NCBI GenBank assembly: GCA_945865925.1
Contig: CAMBFG010000002.1
Coordinates: forward strand, 12,421-76,420
DNA: 64,000 bases
Direction of reading: 5' to 3'
Source of the DNA: Dehalococcoides mccartyi
GTDB taxonomy: Bacteria > Chloroflexota > Dehalococcoidia > UBA2979
A model generated the notes under the pieces. That model was not told the DNA's origin. It was given only the letters and a program-made list of their open reading frames with translations, and made no database searches. Made by a program: the position numbers and the translations under genes. Positions 1,754-58,372 of the stretch are shown here, in pieces. Position 1 is the first letter of the stretch; each line of letters begins with the position of its first letter.

Positions 1754-2548
1754 TCAGGCTGCCGCGAAGCCCCAGCGCTCTCGCACCCACGCCTCGGCGC
1801 GGCCGAACAGCAGGCGGTCGACGGCGACCCCGACCGCGATGATCACCAGCATGATCGCGAACACCATGTTGATGTTGTTCAGGTTGCGGCCGACGTCGAG
1901 CAGGTGGCCGAGGCCGACCGAGACGAAGAGCAGCTCCCCAGCCATCAACGAACGCCACGCGAACGACCAGCCCTGCTTCATCCCCTGGACCATCGAGGGC
2001 ACCATCGCGGGCAGGACGACGTATCGGTACAACTGCCAGCGCGTCGCGCCCAGCGTGCCGGCCGCTCGCGTGAGCAGCGGCGGCAAGCCTCGCATCCCGG
2101 CGCGCGCGGAGATGGCGATCGAGAAGGTGGAGCCCATGAGCACCACGAAGATGATCGCAGTCTCGCTCAGGCCGAACCACAGCACGGCCAGCGGCAGCCA
2201 CGTGATGCTCGGCAGCGATTGCAACCCGAGGACCACGCCGCCAATCGTCTCGTTCGCGAACTTCGAGGCCGCCGTGAGCAGCCCCAGCGCCATGCCGAGG
2301 ACGAACGAGATCACGTAGCCCACGACCAGGCGCTGCATGCTCGCCTGCAAGCCGTCGAGGATCAGCCCGTTCGCGAAGTTCGTCCGCAGCGAGGCAAACA
2401 CCTTCTCCGGGGACGGGAAGAGGAATGGCGACCACACCTCGACACGACCGAGGAGACTCCACAGAGCAATGACGGCGACATAGAACCCGACGATCCGCAG
2501 GAGTTTCAGCCCCGTCTCGCGCGAAGGGATGAGACGGCTAGATCGCAT
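1754..2548 (-). CDS. ABC transporter permease, NitT/TauT (sulfonate/nitrate/taurine) family
   Basis: Six-TM permease with an EAA-like loop. It overlaps the upstream ATPase gene and is the last gene of the SBP-ATPase-permease operon. Confidence 0.85.
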   Translation of the reverse strand: MRSSRLIPSRETGLKLLRIVGFYVAVIALWSLLGRVEVWSPFLFPSPEKVFASLRTNFANGLILDGLQASMQRLVVGYVISFVLGMALGLLTAASKFANETIGGVVLGLQSLPSITWLPLAVLWFGLSETAIIFVVLMGSTFSIAISARAGMRGLPPLLTRAAGTLGATRWQLYRYVVLPAMVPSMVQGMKQGWSFAWRSLMAGELLFVSVGLGHLLDVGRNLNNINMVFAIMLVIIAVGVAVDRLLFGRAEAWVRERWGFAAA

Positions 2549-3377
2549 AGCGCGGCTCCGGCTCGGCGCCCACGTTCTGAAGTTCGTAGCGGACCGCAGC
2601 CGCCAGGTCGGCCACGGCGTGGTCGTCGGGCGTCCTCGGGCGTTCGAGCGGGATATCGATGATCTTCTTGATCCGGCCGGGGCTCGGCGACATCACCACC
2701 ACTCGGTCACCGAGGATGACGGCCTCGCGCACGTTGTGAGTGACGAAGAGGACGGTCGTGCCAATCCGTGCCCACACGGACTGCAGTTCCAGCTGCAGGT
2801 CGTCGCGTGTCTGGGCGTCGAGGGCCGCGAACGGTTCATCCATGAGCAGCACGTGCGGCTCGACGGCCAGACCCCGCGCGAGCTGGGCGCGCTGCTTCAT
2901 CCCGCCAGACAGCTCGTGGATGTACGCGCGGTCGAAGCGACTGAGGTTCACGAGGGCCAATTGCCGGTCGACGATCTCCCGACGCTGCTCCTTCGGAACG
3001 CCTCGCAGCTTCAGGCCGAACTCCACGTTGTCCCGGACATTCAGCCACGGGAAGAGCGCAGGCTCCTGGAAGACGACGGCGCGCTGCTGCGCCATCCCGC
3101 GGATCGGAGCTCCCTCGAACACGGCCTCGCCCTGGTAGTCCGTGTCGATGCCGGCCGCGATGTTGAGCAGCGTCGACTTCCCGCAGCCCGAGGGACCCAC
3201 GATGCAGATGAACTCGCGCGGCCTCACCTTGAGCGTCACGTCGTCGAGTGCGAGGGTGTCCTGGCGCGACGTGCGGAAGTGCTTGCTGATGTGGCGAAGC
3301 GCCAGCAACGGCTCGGGGTCAGAGGCCGCTGAGGCCCTTCCGCCACCCTGCCGTCCGGTGTCTGCGATCAACGCCAT
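2538..3377 (-). CDS. ABC transporter ATP-binding protein (NitT/TauT family)
   Basis: Walker A GPSGCGKST, signature LSGGMKQR, Walker B LLMDEP. The start is taken at MALIADTG; the ORF extends to 3440. Confidence 0.85.
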   Translation of the reverse strand: MALIADTGRQGGGRASAASDPEPLLALRHISKHFRTSRQDTLALDDVTLKVRPREFICIVGPSGCGKSTLLNIAAGIDTDYQGEAVFEGAPIRGMAQQRAVVFQEPALFPWLNVRDNVEFGLKLRGVPKEQRREIVDRQLALVNLSRFDRAYIHELSGGMKQRAQLARGLAVEPHVLLMDEPFAALDAQTRDDLQLELQSVWARIGTTVLFVTHNVREAVILGDRVVVMSPSPGRIKKIIDIPLERPRTPDDHAVADLAAAVRYELQNVGAEPEPRYAI

Positions 3378-3439
3378 TGCCACCCTCGCTTCAACCCTCG
3401 GCCGGCGCCCTCGAAGGGACGCCGGCCGGGGGCAGTCCA

Positions 3440-4519
3440 CTACTTGCTGACTTCCTTGAGGCCCAGTTCCTTCAGCACCTTGTTCAGCAGGTCGAGCGCG
3501 TAGATGTTCGCCAGGTCCGGCTTCTTCTCGCCGAGATACCCGAGCGCGAACGCGTCGTCCGCTGACTTGCGCAGGCTGGAGGCAATGGGGTCATAGGTCG
3601 TCTTCTGGTTTCGCCACGCGCCGTTGATCACTGCCTCGGGCAGTGGGGCGCTCGTGACCTGCTTGATGCCAGCGTTCACGACCTGCTTCGCCTGGTCGGG
3701 GTTCTCGTTGATCCACTGCGTCGTCTTCACGTGCGCACGGAGCAGTTTCTCGACGGTCGCGGGATGCTCCGCCAGGAATTTGGCACTCACGATGAGGTGC
3801 GTCGTGACGAAGTCGCCGTTCGGCCACAGGTCGCGCTCGTCCAGGAAGACTTTGCCGTTGCCCTCGAGGATGAGGCGCGTCGCCCACGGCTCCGGAGCCC
3901 AGGCTGCCTGCAACTCGCCCTTGATGAACAACGCGAGGGCGTCCGCGTTCGCGATCGGACGGACATCGACGTTCCCGCCGTGGTCCTTGTCCTTCAGGCC
4001 ATTCTTCTGCAGCCACGCGCGCGCGGCGACATCCTGCGTGTTCCCCAGCTGCGGCGTCGCGATCCGCTTGCCCGCGAAGTCCGAGGGCTTCGTGATGCCG
4101 GAGTCGGCCTTCACGATCAGCAGCGCACCGGCGCTCGTGGCCCCGGCGATGATGCGGACGTCCTTGCCACCTGACTGCACGTAGCCGGTGATCGCCGGGT
4201 TCGGGCCGATGTACGAGGCGTCGATCGCGCCCGCAAACATCGCCTCGATCACGGACGGGCCCGCGTTGAAGGTCTTCGTCTCGATTTTCACGTTCGAGCC
4301 GAGTTCCTGCGCGAACGTGCCGTTCGCCAGACCGACGATCGGTTGGGCGTGCGTCACATTCGGGAAGTAGCCGAGGCGCAGCGTGACGGGCTGATCCGGG
4401 GATGCGGCCCCCTTCGGCGCGGCCTCGTCCGATCCACAGGCCACCAGGACGGCCGCGAGGACAGCGACGAGCAGCGTTCCGAGGAACGTGGGTTTGCGAA
4501 GGGAGGAAACGTGTGTCAT
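3440..4519 (-). CDS. ABC transporter substrate-binding lipoprotein (NitT/TauT / SsuA-like)
   Basis: Signal peptide with LVAC lipobox, and a periplasmic-binding fold typical of SsuA/TauA/NrtA-type SBPs. Confidence 0.8.
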   Translation of the reverse strand: MTHVSSLRKPTFLGTLLVAVLAAVLVACGSDEAAPKGAASPDQPVTLRLGYFPNVTHAQPIVGLANGTFAQELGSNVKIETKTFNAGPSVIEAMFAGAIDASYIGPNPAITGYVQSGGKDVRIIAGATSAGALLIVKADSGITKPSDFAGKRIATPQLGNTQDVAARAWLQKNGLKDKDHGGNVDVRPIANADALALFIKGELQAAWAPEPWATRLILEGNGKVFLDERDLWPNGDFVTTHLIVSAKFLAEHPATVEKLLRAHVKTTQWINENPDQAKQVVNAGIKQVTSAPLPEAVINGAWRNQKTTYDPIASSLRKSADDAFALGYLGEKKPDLANIYALDLLNKVLKELGLKEVSK

Positions 4520-31644: not shown

Positions 31645-32688
31645 CTACGCCCTCGCAGCCTCGACGGCAGCAAGCAGCGCGGACGCCACCTCGTCACACC
31701 GAGTCGCGGGCGGCACCGCCACGCGCACCCATTCGGGCAGCCCGAACGACGAGGCATCCCGAACGACGATGCGCCGTCCCAGGAGCGCCGTGCGCACGCG
31801 CCTCGCGTCCCCGACGTGTACCAACAGGAAGTTCGCCACACCCGGCGCGACGGCCCGCCCAGCGGCCTCCCAGCGGGCGCGCAGCACCTCGCGCGTCTCG
31901 CGCATCGACGCGAGGGCGGCCCGTCGTGCCTCATGCTGCGAGGCGGCCACAATGCCCGCCGCGATCGAGGGTGCATCGAGCGCCCACGAGTGCTGGAGGC
32001 TGGCGAGCAGCGCGATGACGGGCGGTGCCGCCACGACATACCCGAGGCGCAACCCGGGGACGGCATGCAGTTTGGTCATCGAATGCACGGTCACCACGTT
32101 CGCGTTCGAGCGGGCGAGGTCCGACGCGAACGGCGCGCGGTCGGCGAATGGCTCGTACGCAGCGTCGATGACCACCGTCCCACCGGAGACCTCGGCAGCC
32201 TGCAGCACCTCGGCACGCGTCAGGTCGCGTCCGGTCGGATTGTCGGGAATGCAGAGGAACGTGACGGCCGCGCGAGGCAACGCGGCGACATCGAGGTGGA
32301 ACGCCGGCGGCGTGACTGGCACCTCGATGACGGCCGCGCCTGCGGAGCGTGCAGCGGCGGCGTACTCGCCGAAGGCTGGGGGCACGACGGCGGCGCGATC
32401 GCCCGTCTTGAGCAGCGCGCGCGCAATGAGGTGGATCGCCGCCGTCCCGCCCGGCGTCGGCAGTACGGTCGCCGGGTCGAGGCCGTGAGCACGCGCGATC
32501 GCCTCACGGAGGGGAAGCGCCTCGGCGTGTGGGTAGCGGTCGAGGCGCACCGAGCGGGCGGCTTCGATCACAGCGGGGTCAGGGCCGTCCGGGTGGAGGT
32601 TCGCGGAAAGGTCGAGGACATCGAGCGCACTGAGGCCCAGCGCGGCGAGTTCGGCGTCCTGTGCCCCACCGTGCTCGACGCCACTCAC
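31645..32688 (-). CDS. cobD: HisC-family PLP aminotransferase, probable threonine-phosphate decarboxylase CobD (start uncertain; ATG at 32721 is also possible)
   Basis: Class-I/II aminotransferase fold with the DLSANLHPDGP N-motif, adjacent to and overlapping cbiB. Confidence 0.6.
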   Translation of the reverse strand: MSGVEHGGAQDAELAALGLSALDVLDLSANLHPDGPDPAVIEAARSVRLDRYPHAEALPLREAIARAHGLDPATVLPTPGGTAAIHLIARALLKTGDRAAVVPPAFGEYAAAARSAGAAVIEVPVTPPAFHLDVAALPRAAVTFLCIPDNPTGRDLTRAEVLQAAEVSGGTVVIDAAYEPFADRAPFASDLARSNANVVTVHSMTKLHAVPGLRLGYVVAAPPVIALLASLQHSWALDAPSIAAGIVAASQHEARRAALASMRETREVLRARWEAAGRAVAPGVANFLLVHVGDARRVRTALLGRRIVVRDASSFGLPEWVRVAVPPATRCDEVASALLAAVEAARA

Positions 32689-33804: not shown

Positions 33805-34827
33805 CTAAACGTACTTCGCGAACCACGCCAGCGTGTCAGCCCACGCTCTCGTCGCCTGCACCTCGTTGAAGGAGCCGCCGGTGTCGTTGTGGAACGCGTG
33901 CCCGACACCCGGGTAGATCGTGATCTGGTTCACGATGCCCGCCGCAGCCATCGCGGTGCGGAGGCCCTCAGCACTCCCGGTGATGCGGGTGTCGTTCTCG
34001 GCGTACACCCCGAGCATCGCCGCCTTCATGTTCTTCACGGTTGCGAGGTCCGGCGCAGGGCCGTAGTACGGCGCGACCGCCTTCAACTCCGGGATCTGGG
34101 TCGCGGCGGCCCAGCTGATGCCGCCACCGAAGCAATACCCCGTCATCCCGATGCGCTTCGCGTCCACGCCCTCGACCGTGCCGAGGTATTTGAGACCGGC
34201 GGCGAAGTCGGCGACATGGCGGTCAGTACCCGCGCCGGTGAGCAGGCCGGGCACCTGGTCCGGGTCGCGGCTTGGCGTCCCGCCCTCGCGCGCGAGCAGG
34301 TCGACGGCGAGCGCGACGTAGCCTTCCTTCGCGAAGCGGCGCGCAACGTCACGGATGTGCACCGTCAGCCCTCGGTTCTCGTGACAGACCAGGATGGCGC
34401 GCATCCCCGCGGTCGCCTTCGCGGGTTTCGCGAGGTAGCCACCAGCCTGTGCCGCGCCAGCGGGGAACTTCACGTCCGAACCGATGACGGCCGGGTCGCC
34501 CTCCGGAACCGAGAGCTTGCTCTTGGCGCCCACGACCGGGACGAGGACGGCCGCGGCGGTCGGGCTAGTGGTAGCAGCAGCCTTCGGGACTTCCGTGGTG
34601 GCGGGCGTGACCGCCTTCGGCATCGGCTCGTCTTTCGCGGGCAACTCGTCGTTGGAGCAGCCGAGCGCGAGCATCGCCGTAGCCGTCGCAGCCATCGAGC
34701 CGGTGACGAACGCCACCTTGCGGATGAACGTGCGCCGGTTGATCTCGCCCTCGCGCCAGTCGTCGTAGAACTCTTCGACGAGGTAACGCTCGAACTTCCC
34801 GAGGTTGGTGTTGCTGAGATCGCTCAT
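33805..34827 (-). CDS. dienelactone hydrolase family protein, Tat-exported lipoprotein with long N-region
   Basis: NRRTFIRK twin-arginine motif, h-region plus Cys, PT-rich linker, DLH fold with GYCFGG nucleophile motif. C-terminus LAWFAKYV matches the paralogue at 43038-43709. Confidence 0.7.
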   Translation of the reverse strand: MSDLSNTNLGKFERYLVEEFYDDWREGEINRRTFIRKVAFVTGSMAATATAMLALGCSNDELPAKDEPMPKAVTPATTEVPKAAATTSPTAAAVLVPVVGAKSKLSVPEGDPAVIGSDVKFPAGAAQAGGYLAKPAKATAGMRAILVCHENRGLTVHIRDVARRFAKEGYVALAVDLLAREGGTPSRDPDQVPGLLTGAGTDRHVADFAAGLKYLGTVEGVDAKRIGMTGYCFGGGISWAAATQIPELKAVAPYYGPAPDLATVKNMKAAMLGVYAENDTRITGSAEGLRTAMAAAGIVNQITIYPGVGHAFHNDTGGSFNEVQATRAWADTLAWFAKYV

Positions 34828-34949
34828 CGTGTGTCCTCCCTATGCGGTATCAATCCGCGGACACGTTCAAGCCTACAAGTTGTGAGGCGCCCATGTGTGA
34901 AGCCGCGGTGCGTAGTTATGTCGCGGCGCTGGCCGTCGAGCGGTACTGA

Positions 34950-36459
34950 CTACGAGTCCCAGTTGAGCGTGCGCTCCACTGCCCGTCCCCATCGCGCCGC
35001 CTCGCGATCGCGATCCGCGGCCGCGATCCGCGGCCGCGATCCGCGGCTCAAACACCGTGACCCCACCAGCATCGAGGCTGGCGAACTCCTCGAGGCTCCC
35101 CCACACGCCGGCGGCGATCCCGGCGAGGCCGGCCGCACCAAAGGCGGTGACTTCAAGCTCGGCCGGGCGATGGACGGGGATGCCGAGGAGGTCCGCCTGG
35201 ATCTGCATCAGCAGGTCGTCGCGGCAGGCGCCGCCATCGACGCGTAACGCGGACAGCGGCGCACCCGCATCGGCAGCGAGGCACTCGATGACTTCGCGGC
35301 TCTGGTGCGCGATCGCGTCGAGCGCCGCGCGTGCGATGTGGGCGCGCGAGGTGCCACGCGTCATGCCGAACAGCGCGCCGCGCGCCGATTCGTCCCAGTG
35401 CGGCGCCCCGAGACCCGTGAATGCTGGCACCAGCACCACGCCACCACTGTCCGGCACCGAAGCGGCCAGCGCCTCGACCTCCGCCGCCGTCGTGATGATG
35501 CCGAGGCCGTCACGCAGCCACTGCACGGTGGAGCCGCCGGAGAACACGCTGCCTTCAAGGGCGTAGGCAGGCGGCGCACCCTGCACGCGGGCAGCCACGG
35601 TGGTGAGCAGGCCTCGGTGGCTAGGGACGGCGCGGTCACCCGTGTGCATCAGCAGGAAGCAGCCGGTGCCATAGGTGTTCTTCGCCGCACCAGGCGTGGT
35701 GCAGCGCTGTCCGAAGAGTGCCGCCTGCTGGTCTCCCGCCACCCCGCGGATCGGGATCGCAGCACCCAGCCACGAGGCGTCCGCCTCGCCGAAGTCGCCT
35801 GATGACAGGCGGACGTCCGGCAACAGCGCGCGCGGAACATCGAGGGCCGCGAGCAAGGTGTCGTCCCACGCGTGCGTGTGGATGTTCCACAGCATCGTGC
35901 GGCTGGCGTTCGTCTCGTCCGTCGCGTGGACGCGTCCGCCGGTCAGCCGCCAGAGCAGCCACGAGTCCACCGTGCCAAACGCGAGTTCGCCCGCAGCGGC
36001 CCGCGCCTGGGCCTCTGGGACGGCATCCAGAATGAAGCGCACCTTCGTCGCACTGAAGTAAGCGTCGATCACGAGGCCGGTGCGCGCCCGCACCTCCTCG
36101 GTCAGGTCGCGCGCGCGCAGGTCATCGCAGATCGAGGCGGTCTGGCGAGACTGCCACACGATGGCGGGGTAAATCGGTCGCCCGGTGGCGCGCTCCCAGA
36201 CGAGCGCCGTCTCTCGCTGGTTCGTGATGCCGATGGCGGCGACCTCGGATGCCTGGATGGCCGCCCTCGCGAGGACACCGCGAGCGGCGGCCAACTGACT
36301 CTCCCAGATCGCCTCGGGGTCGTGCTCCACCCAGCCGGGGCGCGGGTAGGACTGCGGGAACTCCCGCTGGTCGACGGCGACGGCGCGCCCCTGCTCGTCG
36401 AACAGGATCGCGCGCGACGATGTGGTGCCCTGATCCAGCGCGAGGACGTACCGGCTCAT
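34950..36459 (-). CDS. glpK: glycerol kinase; C-terminal 26 codons displaced into another frame by a 13-bp tandem repeat (the annotated ORF reads through to 34873 with an aberrant tail)
   Basis: [10 protein letters not shown]-motif and GlpK similarity throughout. The authentic C-terminus ...[16 protein letters not shown] is encoded in the -1 frame, ending at 34950. Confidence 0.8.
35011..35049. repeat. 13-bp tandem repeat (cgatccgcggccg) x3: two perfect copies and one partial
   Basis: 35011-35023, 35024-35036 and 35037-35047. The unit length is not a multiple of 3, so a change in copy number shifts the glpK reading frame. Confidence 0.85.
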
Positions 36460-38615: not shown

Positions 38616-40211
38616 ATGAAGGGCGCACGCACTGACTTGCTGAGCACCGCACCCGTAGCCGCCGCCGGCGCCGCCCTGGTGCTGCTCGCGGCGGCTGCGT
38701 GGCCCCTCGCCGCCCTGACGCGCACCGCGTTCGAGGGTGACCTGTTCACCCTGATCCGCACTGACCAGGAACTCCAGCAGGCGTTCCTGTGGGCAAGCGC
38801 GATGGCGACCGCTTCGTGCGCCCTCGGCGTCTTCTTCGGGGTGGTGAGCGCGTACTGCTGGGCACGTCTGCGCTATCCCGGCCGGACGTTCCTTCGCGGG
38901 CTCGCGATCGCGCCGCTGGCGGTGCCCGCGATCGTCCTCGCGAGCGGCATCGAGGCGTTGTTTGCGCCGGGGCGGCTCGCCGCCGACCTCGCCACATTCG
39001 TCGGGATCGATCCGGCGCGGCTGCGCAACGGGACAGGTGCCGTGATCGTCGCGCACGGGCTCATCGCGACCGCAGCCGTTGGATGGTTCGCCAGCGTCGC
39101 GTGGGCCAACGTGGACGCGCGGAAGGTGGACGCCGCTCGCACGCTGGGGCCGGCCCCCTCCGCGCCGCTCGGATTGCGGTGTGGCCGGCCGTCTGGCCCT
39201 CGGCCCTCGCCGGAGCGGGCTCTGCGTTCCTGCAGGCGATCCTGTCCTACGGCGTGATCGTGATCCTAGCTGACGGCCGCGAGACGACCGAGGGCCTCGC
39301 TGTCAGGCTCGCGCTCGCGAGCGACGAACGAGCGGCGGCGGTGGCGCTGCTCACCAGTGGGTACGCGCTGCTCTGCGGGATCGTCACCATCCAGTTGGTA
39401 CGCTCACCGCAGGTCGAGGCGCGCCGCACGCGCGCGCGTCAACGCGCCCGCGGCGTCGATCGGGTCGCCATCCTGATCGCGGCGGTACCGGCGCTGATGG
39501 TCCTTGGCGCGACGCTCACCTTGCTGCTCCAGGCAGTCGAAGCCGAGGATGGCCTGACCGCGCATTACGTTGCGCGGACTCGTGGCGGGGCCAGGTGCAA
39601 GCGGCATCCGGCAGGCGGCCCTGGGAAGTCTGCTGGCCGCCGTCCCGGCAGCGGCGCTGACAGCCGTATGGGGCGGGATGGCGGGCGCGGCGCTGGGGCG
39701 GATGCGTGGCTTCGGCGGAATGGTGCGAGCGGTCGCGCTGCTGTTCCCCCTGGCCGCGTCACCGGCGGCGCTCGCCTTCGGCTGGCGGCTGGCAGCTCCG
39801 GACATCGACCCCCGGATCACGCTGCCGGTGGTGCAGGCGTTCGTGGCGTTCCCGTTCGTCGCCGGCACGATTGCGCGGATGCGGCCTCGGCCGCACGCGG
39901 GGATCGTGGTGGCTGCGCGGTCGCTGGGTGCTCGACGCCTGCGCGCCTGGCGCGTGCTGCGAGGGCCGTCGTACGTGATCGCAGGACTGGTGGGATTCCT
40001 CGTCGCGTTTGGGATCACGCTCGGAGAGACCGGTGCCGCAACGGTGGCCCGCGTGCCTGGCGGCACTCTTCCGGTCCGGTTGCTCGAACTCCACCGCCAG
40101 GGCTCCAGCGCCCAGGCTGCTGCACTTGCCAGCGCTATCCTCGTGATCGCTGTGGCGGCATTCACGCTCGGCGACCCGATCATCGCGCGGCTCGGCCGGG
40201 GGCGGAGGTAG
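38616..40211 (+). pseudogene. two-domain (12-TM, ThiP/FbpB-like) ABC importer permease interrupted by two single-base homopolymer indels
   Basis: Frame 0 (38616 onward) carries the EAA loop ...VDARKVDAARTLG and then shifts to frame 2 at a G4 run near 39146-39149 (-1). Frame 2 continues with RIAVWPAVWPSALAGAGSAFLQAILSYGVIVIL and shifts back to frame 0 at the G-run near 39587-39590 (+1). Frame 0 then encodes the second TMD (IRQAALGSLLAAV...ARSLGARRLRAWRVL). Confidence 0.6.
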
Positions 40212-40213
40212 CC

Positions 40214-41728
40214 GTGGGCACTCTGGAGGTCCGCTCCCTCTCGCGTATCCGTGATGGCGTCCTCTTGTTCGACGAAGTCTCCTTCTTCGTGCCTGACGGA
40301 CGGGTCACCGCGATCGCCGGCCCAGCGATGTCCGGGAAGACCTCGCTGCTGCGCGTGATCGCGGGCGTCGAGCGCTCGGACGGCGGAGACGTGCTGCTGG
40401 ACGGGCACTCACTGCTGCGGCTGCCGACCGAGCGCCGCCACCTCGGCTTCCTGTTCGAGGACCTCGCGCTGTTCGAGGACATGACCGTGCGAGACAACGT
40501 GGCGTTCGGGTTGCGCATGCAGCGACGCAAGCGCGTCGAGCGGCTGCGCCGCACGGACGACGTGCTGGACGCGCTGGGCCTCGGTGGGAAGGCGCATCGC
40601 AAACCTCGCGACCTGTCGCCGGGCGAGCGGAAGCGCCTCGCGTTCGCGCGCGCCGTCGCCCCGGAACCCTCGCTGTTGCTGCTTGACGAGCCCACGGCTG
40701 GCGTTGAGGAAGTGGGCCGCGAAGCGTGGCGACAGGAACTCGCACAGGCACTCCGCGCCCTCCATGTGACGACGGTGATCGCGACGACTGACCTACGTGA
40801 CGCCGTCGTGCTGGCGGACCAGATCGTCCTAATGGCGGAAGGTCAGGTGCTCCAGACGGGCAGCGTGTCTCGCGTGCTGCAAGGGCCCGCCTCCATCGAG
40901 GCGGCGACGCTCGCGGGCTACGTACCACTCGTGCGCGGCGACGTCTTCGAGGGCCATGTGATCGAGCAGGGTGTCGGCGCAGTAGCCTTCCCCGCCGGCT
41001 TCCCGCTGCGCCAACAGGCGGCAGTCATGGCGCACCCCACGGCACTTTTCGGGGTACCCGGTGGCTCAGGCCTCGGCAGCGGCGTGTCGGGCACGCTCTT
41101 GCGGGCGCGGCCGGACGGACCTGCTTACGTGGTGGAGGTGCAACTGAACGACCGCTCAGTGGCATTGCGGTGGGAATGGGACCTGACACCACCGGAACCC
41201 GGCGCGTCGGTCGAGATCGCGGTGCGGCCCGGCACGTTGCGCTTCTTCAACGACTCCCCCGCCCCTCGCGTCCGCTCCACCGAGTCGGCCACCGTCGCTC
41301 CGGAGCGCTTTGCCGTGCTGGCGCCTCGAGTGGTGGCGGGCGCCGATGCACCCGGCCCGCGCGCCTCGCAACCGCCGCCGCCTGACGAACCGCTCGACGC
41401 AGCGCCCGCACCACCGACGCCGGCATCCACCAGCGCGACGGACGAGGACGATGAGGACTCGTCGCCGCCACACCTGGATGCTCGCGCACCAGGGCCGGCC
41501 TGGCAGCGTCCCCCAGTGGAGGATGTCGGACCGGTCCGATCGCCTGACGCGGCCGTTGACCCGGTCCGGGTACGTCCCAACCGCCCGACGCCCCCGCCCG
41601 CCGAGCCGGTCGAGCCCGTCGAGCCAATGCAGCCAGTCGAGGAGCAGTTGACTTCCGACGAGCCGGCGCCCGCCGGTGCGCCCCCACCAAAGGCGGACGA
41701 GCGGCACAGCGGGATGCCGCTCGACTAG
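40214..41728 (+). CDS. PotA/FbpC-type ABC ATPase homologue with substituted catalytic motifs, a TOBE-like domain and about 170 aa of acidic Pro-rich tail
   Basis: Walker A GPAMSGKT and Walker B LLLLDEP are kept. Q-loop FQ is FE, signature LSGGQ is LSPGE, D-loop SALD is AGVE, and H-loop THD is TTD. The C-terminal tail is low complexity (EPVEPVEPMQPVEE...). Confidence 0.75.
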   Translation: MGTLEVRSLSRIRDGVLLFDEVSFFVPDGRVTAIAGPAMSGKTSLLRVIAGVERSDGGDVLLDGHSLLRLPTERRHLGFLFEDLALFEDMTVRDNVAFGLRMQRRKRVERLRRTDDVLDALGLGGKAHRKPRDLSPGERKRLAFARAVAPEPSLLLLDEPTAGVEEVGREAWRQELAQALRALHVTTVIATTDLRDAVVLADQIVLMAEGQVLQTGSVSRVLQGPASIEAATLAGYVPLVRGDVFEGHVIEQGVGAVAFPAGFPLRQQAAVMAHPTALFGVPGGSGLGSGVSGTLLRARPDGPAYVVEVQLNDRSVALRWEWDLTPPEPGASVEIAVRPGTLRFFNDSPAPRVRSTESATVAPERFAVLAPRVVAGADAPGPRASQPPPPDEPLDAAPAPPTPASTSATDEDDEDSSPPHLDARAPGPAWQRPPVEDVGPVRSPDAAVDPVRVRPNRPTPPPAEPVEPVEPMQPVEEQLTSDEPAPAGAPPPKADERHSGMPLD

Positions 41729-57595: not shown

Positions 57596-58372
57596 CTACA
57601 CCTTGACCGCGCCGGGCTCCGGCCCCGGCAGCGACACGATCGCCCCATTCACCGCCGGCTGCGCCACCAACCATGCGAGGGCTTCCGCCACATCGACCTG
57701 CGTCGGCTTGCGGTAGGCATCGAGGGTGTGTGTGCCGCGGATGGCGTCGAGCAGCACCTCAGGGGCCACGCGGGTGATCGGGCCGGGGGCCACGCCGTTC
57801 ACGGTGATGCCGTAGCGCGCCTCCTGCCTCGACAGGGTGCGGACGAGCCAGTGGCGCGCCGCCTTGCCGAGCGGGTAGTCGAGCGGGGCGTCCTCGGTCG
57901 AGGCGCGCCAGTCCTCGCTGTCGAAACCGCCGACGGTCGCGATGCGGCCCCAGCCAGCGGCGCGCATCGCGGGCAGGCAGGCGCGCGCGAGCAGGTAGAA
58001 CGCGTCCACCTCTTCGGCCATCGCGGCGCGCCAGTCCTCGGGCGGGATCGCGTCGAGCGGGCGCGGCTTCCAGACGGCGCCAGCGGAGACCACGAGGATC
58101 GAGGGCTCACCGAGCGTCCTTCGGACCTGGGCGAGCATTGCGTCGACTTCGGCGGCGTCGCCGGTGTCAGCGGTGACGGCGAGGGCGCGCCGGCCGAAGC
58201 CACGTACCTCCTCGGCGACCGCCTCGGCGGCCTCGCGGTTGCGATGGGTGTTCACGACGACATCGGCGCCGTCACGCGCGAAGGCGAGGGCGGTCGCATG
58301 GCCGACGCCGCGCCCCGCCGCGCCCGTCACGAGTGCGATCTGTCCGAGCAGCGGCGTCTCTGTCTTGGCCAT
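57596..58372 (-). CDS. SDR-family oxidoreductase
   Basis: VTGAAGRGVGHATA Rossmann motif. Confidence 0.75.
   Translation of the reverse strand: MAKTETPLLGQIALVTGAAGRGVGHATALAFARDGADVVVNTHRNREAAEAVAEEVRGFGRRALAVTADTGDAAEVDAMLAQVRRTLGEPSILVVSAGAVWKPRPLDAIPPEDWRAAMAEEVDAFYLLARACLPAMRAAGWGRIATVGGFDSEDWRASTEDAPLDYPLGKAARHWLVRTLSRQEARYGITVNGVAPGPITRVAPEVLLDAIRGTHTLDAYRKPTQVDVAEALAWLVAQPAVNGAIVSLPGPEPGAVKV

Follow-up and report, generated by a model that had tools for sequence, protein, structure and literature searches.

The glpK locus and its 13-bp array

The window, the whole 64-kb stretch of DNA (64,000 nucleotides) analyzed here, contains a gene for glycerol kinase, glpK, whose open reading frame in its current form encodes 528 aa on the minus strand (34873..36459) and is frameshifted at its 3' end. 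The product matches the Pfam domains FGGY_N (6.8e-75; 252.3 bits) and FGGY_C (9.1e-45; 153.3 bits), exceeding the respective gathering cut-offs of 28.8 and 27. Downstream of glpK lies an intact gene of the DLH (dienelactone hydrolase) family (33805..34827, minus strand; Pfam DLH 3.7e-49). At codons 472-484 of glpK, the coding strand reads GCCGCGGATCGCG three times in succession (35009..35047, minus strand). TRF describes this perfect array by a period of 13 bp, 3.0 copies, 100% matches and 0 indels, an independent period scan recovered the identical 39-bp run, and the relatives described below show a clean 13-bp gap at this position. An earlier note on this DNA had reported three occurrences of the unit and called the third one partial; the three occurrences stand, but the array comprises exactly 3.0 copies, the difference being a matter of register only. 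No other perfect array in the 64-kb window has at least three copies and a period of 7-30, 100 dinucleotide-preserving shuffles produced none, and the 13-mer was not found as a dispersed element.

One extra 13-bp unit adds 3n+1 nucleotides and thereby shifts the glpK frame. The native frame is retained over codons 1-479 (35023..36459, minus strand), the prefix common to the as-is and the repaired products; pairwise dN/dS between the window glpK and its relatives is 0.05-0.07. It is followed by an aberrant tail of 49 out-of-frame codons and a stop codon (34873..35022, minus strand), which in the as-is protein takes the place of 19 native residues and which the earlier note had put at 62 aa. The native 3' end is still present, orphaned and out of frame, at 34950..35008 (minus strand), where it requires the last base of the array to encode the 19 native residues before the TAG stop codon at 34950-34952. 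The aberrant reading frame passes this native stop and extends 77 nt into the glpK-DLH spacer.

When glpK was rebuilt in silico with 0 to 5 units of the 13-mer, the GlpK end was kept only with two units, giving 498 aa, or with five, giving 511 aa with a 13-aa insertion; 0, 1, 3 or 4 units did not restore the native frame. Removal of one unit joins the two frames exactly and yields a 498-aa protein that matches those of relatives at 96-97%. The observation at the core of the earlier note is thus confirmed: glpK is frameshifted by an extra 13-bp unit, two copies restore the canonical end, and the out-of-frame C-terminal motif finishing at 34950 is the conserved end of GlpK, as seen from its translation, from conservation among 131 homologs and from alignment to the E. 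coli structure. The interpretation that the earlier note attached to this observation is partly supported, as discussed below.

The array holds two copies of a 10-bp palindrome, CGCGGCCGCG, which contains a NotI site; the copies lie 3 nt apart and allow a 10-bp hairpin on either strand, and the two-copy state has one palindrome only. We do not find such a hairpin compelling as a driver of the duplication, its fold z-scores being only -1.6 and -2.3 relative to shuffles. The glpK-DLH spacer (34828-34949) contains invariant or near-invariant blocks (GACATAAC, CAACTTGTAGGC and GTCCGCGG...CCGCA.AGGGAGGACA) across six lineages whose glpK is 87-94% identical to that of the window, and the aberrant glpK reading frame ends inside one of them; searches of the spacer gave neither an Rfam match nor a consensus promoter or terminator. 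Elsewhere in the window, a 33-bp tandem repeat (2.5 copies, 92% matches) occupies 122-204. A second frameshifting duplication in the window was considered and rejected, as the genes that hold the two candidate repeats are intact and have full-length Pfam matches: a 17-bp unit repeated twice with one mismatch in an aminotransferase gene (31736-31769) and a perfect 10-bp unit repeated twice in the Gly-rich NAD-binding motif of a short-chain dehydrogenase gene (58306-58325). The periods of these two repeats are not multiples of three, and they are proto-repeats of the same kind as the one that gave rise to the glpK duplication.

The three-copy allele in the strain and in related lineages

The window comes from a metagenome-assembled genome, and assemblies are notoriously prone to error at tandem repeats, so that a true genome with two units and an erroneous third one has to be considered. 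The exact 528-aa product is encoded on four contigs from NCBI and ENA, the longest of 282,804 bp. One contig from a separate ENA assembly (L001; 3.9 kb, MEGAHIT) matches the window at 100% identity, with 3.0 copies in its array. A search for more contigs of the same strain by exact match to the DLH protein of the window yielded L097 and L098, which the Logan pipeline had assembled from runs ERR3719154 and ERR3719160 and which show 100% identity to the window over a length of 4.5 kb, with 3.0 copies each. Altogether, three same-strain contigs were compared as DNA and three further ones are known by the 528-aa product only; the copy number, read from assembly consensus rather than from reads, is 3.0 in every contig compared as DNA. 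Identical arrays thus come from different runs and from two assembly pipelines (MEGAHIT k141 and Logan). Moreover, the 39-bp array is shorter than a single short read and shorter than the k-mers used, so that an extra unit should not arise without reads containing it, and the other short repeats of the window sit in intact genes. An assembly or sequencing error, which the earlier note had held to be an equally good explanation, is for these reasons very improbable.

Searches for other alleles of the strain were negative. The predicted products of the 0-, 1-, 2-, 4- and 5-copy alleles were absent among ~15 billion proteins. A scan of the JGI metagenomes with a flank-anchored pattern allowing two to four copies gave no match, nor did a scan of the same collection for the perfect 26-bp two-copy array, and the clade seems to be absent from that collection at the required identity. 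A search with the two out-of-frame tails in a collection of 5.8 billion proteins likewise gave no match; the comparison is with cluster representatives only, and P0001 itself falls under a normal-length representative, which makes the result uninformative. The assembly-level data are compatible with two-copy minority variants, which may occur within samples.

The window protein belongs to a 90%-identity cluster of glycerol kinases from uncultured Chloroflexota, and its closest relatives (96-97% identity in protein, about 92.5-94.4% in DNA) have 498 aa and a normal end. The earlier note had proposed a comparison of copy number with related strains. In five related lineages, with 87-94% nucleotide identity in glpK, each gene has two imperfect units and exactly 13 bp less at the array, and DNA alignments show no further indel between the array and the stop codon. 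The two units are GCCCCGGATCGCG and GCCACGGATCGCG in L002, L086 and L091, with one mismatch between them; GCCGCGGATCGCG and GCTGCGGAGCGTG in L003-L005, with three; GCCGCAGATCGCG and GCGGTCGACCGCG in L087-L090, with four; and GCCGCGGATTCCG and GCAGCGGATCGCA in L092-L094, also with four. Because the relatives hold two imperfect units and are 13 bp shorter, the ancestral state would be a proto-repeat and the third unit in the window a tandem duplication, and because all three window copies are perfect, the two units had probably become identical in the lineage of the window before the duplication. The ancestral proto-repeat itself appears to be a by-product of the GC-rich codons for P-R-I-A / A-A-D-R.

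The gene order epimerase, Sua5 (divergent), glpK, DLH-family hydrolase, CobD and aminotransferase is kept in all relatives. No other genes of the glycerol pathway were found within ~17 kb on either side of glpK, and a search of the genome contigs with the repaired protein returned only distant glpK genes (52-67% identity) among the matches listed, with no close relative and no contig of the source genome among them. Lake Baikal water, taken at 1250 m and 1350 m, is the source of two of the relatives, L002 and L086, which are the sole members tied to that lake. In these relatives, a GAF gene lies ~0.7 kb from the epimerase gene, and in the window ~3 kb separate the epimerase and GAF genes (38789-41728) and encode an ABC-transporter ATPase domain; the extra ~3 kb points to strain-level variation in gene content beside the glpK locus. 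In L091 (1693-1729), the glpK stop codon TAG is changed to GAG, which adds 11 aa to give 509 aa, and this allele is present on three contigs.

Predicted consequences for glycerol kinase

The repaired 498-aa protein aligns over residues 3-497 to residues 4-497 of E. coli glycerol kinase (1BO5/1GLA) with an E value of 5e-181, and the as-is protein is colinear with solved glycerol kinases to residue 479 only. The gene is a glpK ortholog, but the product as encoded lacks the helix motif W-x-R-A-V-x-R, which lies out of frame at 34950-35008. Among 131 full-length homologs, all of 493-512 aa, four residues of the lost segment (W486, A489, V490 and R492) are each invariant (131/131), and R488 and W496 are present in 119 and 120 of the 131, respectively. 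The human mutation W503R, which we take to be a glycerol-kinase-deficiency mutation in the same C-terminal motif, is not used as evidence here. In the AlphaFold2 model of a normal relative (P0010), the C-terminal helix spans residues 476-493, and 14 of its 18 residues are swapped out by the frameshift. Its pLDDT is ~87 over residues 481-490 and 68 beyond residue 490, as compared with 73 over residues 481-490 and 41 and lower beyond residue 490 in the model of the as-is protein, which stays below 50 at residues 492-528. The new 49-residue tail, rich in Gly and Arg, is probably disordered. Together, the loss of conserved residues and the drop in pLDDT suggest that glycerol kinase function is quite likely lost or severely impaired.

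The frameshifted enzyme might nevertheless still be active, with the helix dispensable or partly replaced by the new tail and the allele neutral or mildly impaired. The frameshift leaves untouched the two FGGY domains and every catalytic region up to residue 479, AlphaFold2 retains a helix over 476-494 in its model of the 528-aa product, the allele is the consensus across several samples, and the relative L091 tolerates its 11-aa C-terminal extension. However, none of the 131 natural full-length homologs is without the segment from which the four invariant residues are gone, the helix that AlphaFold2 retains there has a lowered pLDDT and probably reflects the alignment of homologs, and the Gly/Arg-rich composition of the tail also speaks against a replacement. 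We therefore regard an active enzyme as unlikely. It is also conceivable that ribosomes regain the native C-terminus through programmed +1 frameshifting, given that the segment coding for it is still perfectly preserved, albeit out of frame. Yet the relatives use a single frame and hence have no conserved recoding site, there is no Rfam match and no recognizable element, and a recent lesion accounts for the preserved tail, so that we give this explanation almost no credence.

Origin of the duplication and glpK lesions in the clade

At the syntenic position of glpK, two other cluster members with seemingly truncated products each carry a glpK gene that was broken independently. In L096 (glpK at 2667-4161), a 2-bp deletion near 3008 contracts (GC)5 to (GC)4 at codon 114, and apart from this deletion there are 0 mismatches over 6,066 bp to the intact L088; the intact allele of that strain is found on seven contigs and the frameshifted one on one. 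The same (GC)5 tract is intact in the glpK of the window (36108-36118). L095 contains a decayed glpK (2192-3501) in a more distant relative (~88% nucleotide identity), with a 1-bp deletion at codon 268, outside any run, and homology that ends at codon 437; the DLH gene is absent downstream, and glpK is followed by unrelated sequence. As a control, the epimerase, Sua5, DLH and CobD genes were compared across the window and 16 loci and gave single colinear matches, barring truncation at contig ends and the loss of DLH in L095, so that glpK is the only one of the five genes to be split or truncated. Three independent lesions of glpK in ~7 lineages stand against none in four neighbor genes, in a sample that is small and consists of loci found via glpK itself. 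This suggests, as a lead and not as a result, that inactivation of glpK has been repeatedly tolerated or favored in the clade.

The changes specific to the window branch comprise 19 synonymous and 2 nonsynonymous ones with no other lesion in the gene, which argues for a frameshift that is recent relative to strain divergence. Compared with the nearest relative, the orphaned tail has 3 synonymous and 0 nonsynonymous changes. The locus resembles an ordinary slipped-strand frameshift pseudogene in that its frame departs from that of all orthologs, it has lost conserved residues, and the duplication took place where a direct repeat already existed; unlike such a pseudogene, it shows no further decay yet, so that either the lesion would be very young or the gene not fully released from selection.

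The earlier note had described the array as a classic contingency configuration, in which units would be gained and lost by slippage and glpK would be ON with two or five copies and OFF with three or four. The array shares with contingency loci its position within coding sequence and a unit length (13 bp) not divisible by three, and the gene would be restored exactly by loss of one unit. Phase variation would also be in keeping with a gene body without decay, with the independent breakage of glpK in two sister lineages next to neighbor genes that are spared throughout, and with the difference of a single GC dinucleotide that sets L096 apart from L088, and it has precedents in the glpK of M. 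tuberculosis (PMC6667613) and, going by the account in PMC11163986, in the cap3A duplications (Waite et al. 2001). However, the three-copy state is the sole state seen for the strain, whether by DNA or by product, no product of another copy number is on record, and among the assemblies copy number does not vary within the strain or among close strains. The perfect repeat is not kept across related lineages, where 1, 3 or 4 of the 13 positions are mismatched between the units, which is the opposite of a maintained contingency tract. The three lesions of the clade differ in site and kind, and L095 has in addition suffered an irreversible loss at its 3' end. Known contingency loci have many repeat units, and typical hypermutable tracts are far longer than three units; by this measure three units of a 13-mer are short. 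Reading the array as a contingency locus is thus not supported by the comparative data, even though reversion would be possible in principle, and we consider phase variation at this site unlikely.

Comparison with known systems helps to place the lesion. In M. tuberculosis and M. bovis, homopolymer frameshifts in glpK abolish or impair glycerol kinase (Bellerose et al. 2019, PMC6667613; Safi et al. 2019, bioRxiv 10.1101/717272); the mycobacterial site is a 7-nt homopolymer in the 5' half of glpK that undergoes 1-bp changes, is conserved across strains and homoplasic, and for which reversion has been shown experimentally. The two cases have in common the gene, a slippage-type frameshift and otherwise purifying selection, and may also share independent recurrence in related lineages, to judge by the small sample of loci found via glpK. 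They differ in that here, at codon 480, a 13-mer went from two to three copies, relatives have an imperfect repeat, sister lineages have their lesions at other sites, and neither reversion nor heterogeneity is seen in the assemblies. None of the glpK lesions in the clade is at a homopolymer, the lesions being a 13-mer duplication, a contraction of a GC dinucleotide tract and a 1-bp deletion outside runs. In Streptococcus pneumoniae cap3A, a short tandem duplication within the open reading frame is OFF and its precise loss is ON (Waite et al. 2001, as reported in PMC11163986). On this second-hand account, cap3A is the closest mechanistic match to what reversion would look like here, since in both cases a duplication breaks the frame and precise excision, here in silico, restores the wild type; unlike the pneumococcal switching, which according to the same account was observed in culture, the present case offers only the duplicated state, known from sequence alone.

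Altogether, we favor as probable an explanation whereby a real and recent 13-bp tandem duplication, an ordinary slippage mutation, arose within glpK in a single strain belonging to a deep-freshwater clade of uncultured Chloroflexota. Ancestrally, the gene would have had two adjacent, near-identical 13-mers formed by the GC-rich PRIA-AADR codons, these units would have become identical in the lineage of the window, and slipped-strand mispairing would then have added the third copy. The 13 extra bases shift the frame at codon 480 and would let the 49-residue tail supplant most of the C-terminal helix, most likely leaving the enzyme inactive or badly impaired. Reversion by loss of one unit would be possible at a site that we take to be a proto-repeat of accidental origin rather than a hypermutable tract that is maintained. 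Against the duplication as an ordinary accident, the intact gene body and the pattern of substitutions in the orphaned tail would fit an intermittently used gene equally well, and the glpK lesions in two other relatives, one of them at a dinucleotide repeat, hint at something more systematic than a single accident. It is tempting to speculate that glpK in this free-living deep-lake clade is a recurrent target of slippage-mediated and potentially reversible inactivation at accidental GC-rich repeats, namely the 13-mer (x2/x3) at codon 480 and (GC)5/(GC)4 at codon 114, but we hold this broader proposal to be improbable at present. If it were true, natural populations would carry glycerol-kinase ON and OFF subclones, an environmental counterpart of the phase variation of mycobacterial glpK.

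The glpK duplication adds a further case to a familiar kind of lesion. Taken alone it is of minor importance, and it provides a clean and thoroughly documented example of how a chance direct repeat in GC-rich coding sequence can seed a frameshifting duplication; for annotators, it means that the 528-aa 'glycerol kinase' of this genome is probably non-functional. More interesting is the pattern of three independent lesions with spared neighbors and an ON/OFF pair in one otherwise identical strain. If read-level data confirmed this pattern, it would suggest that the shutdown of glycerol catabolism has been tolerated or favored repeatedly in deep-lake plankton, and it would extend the glpK story past mycobacterial pathogens.
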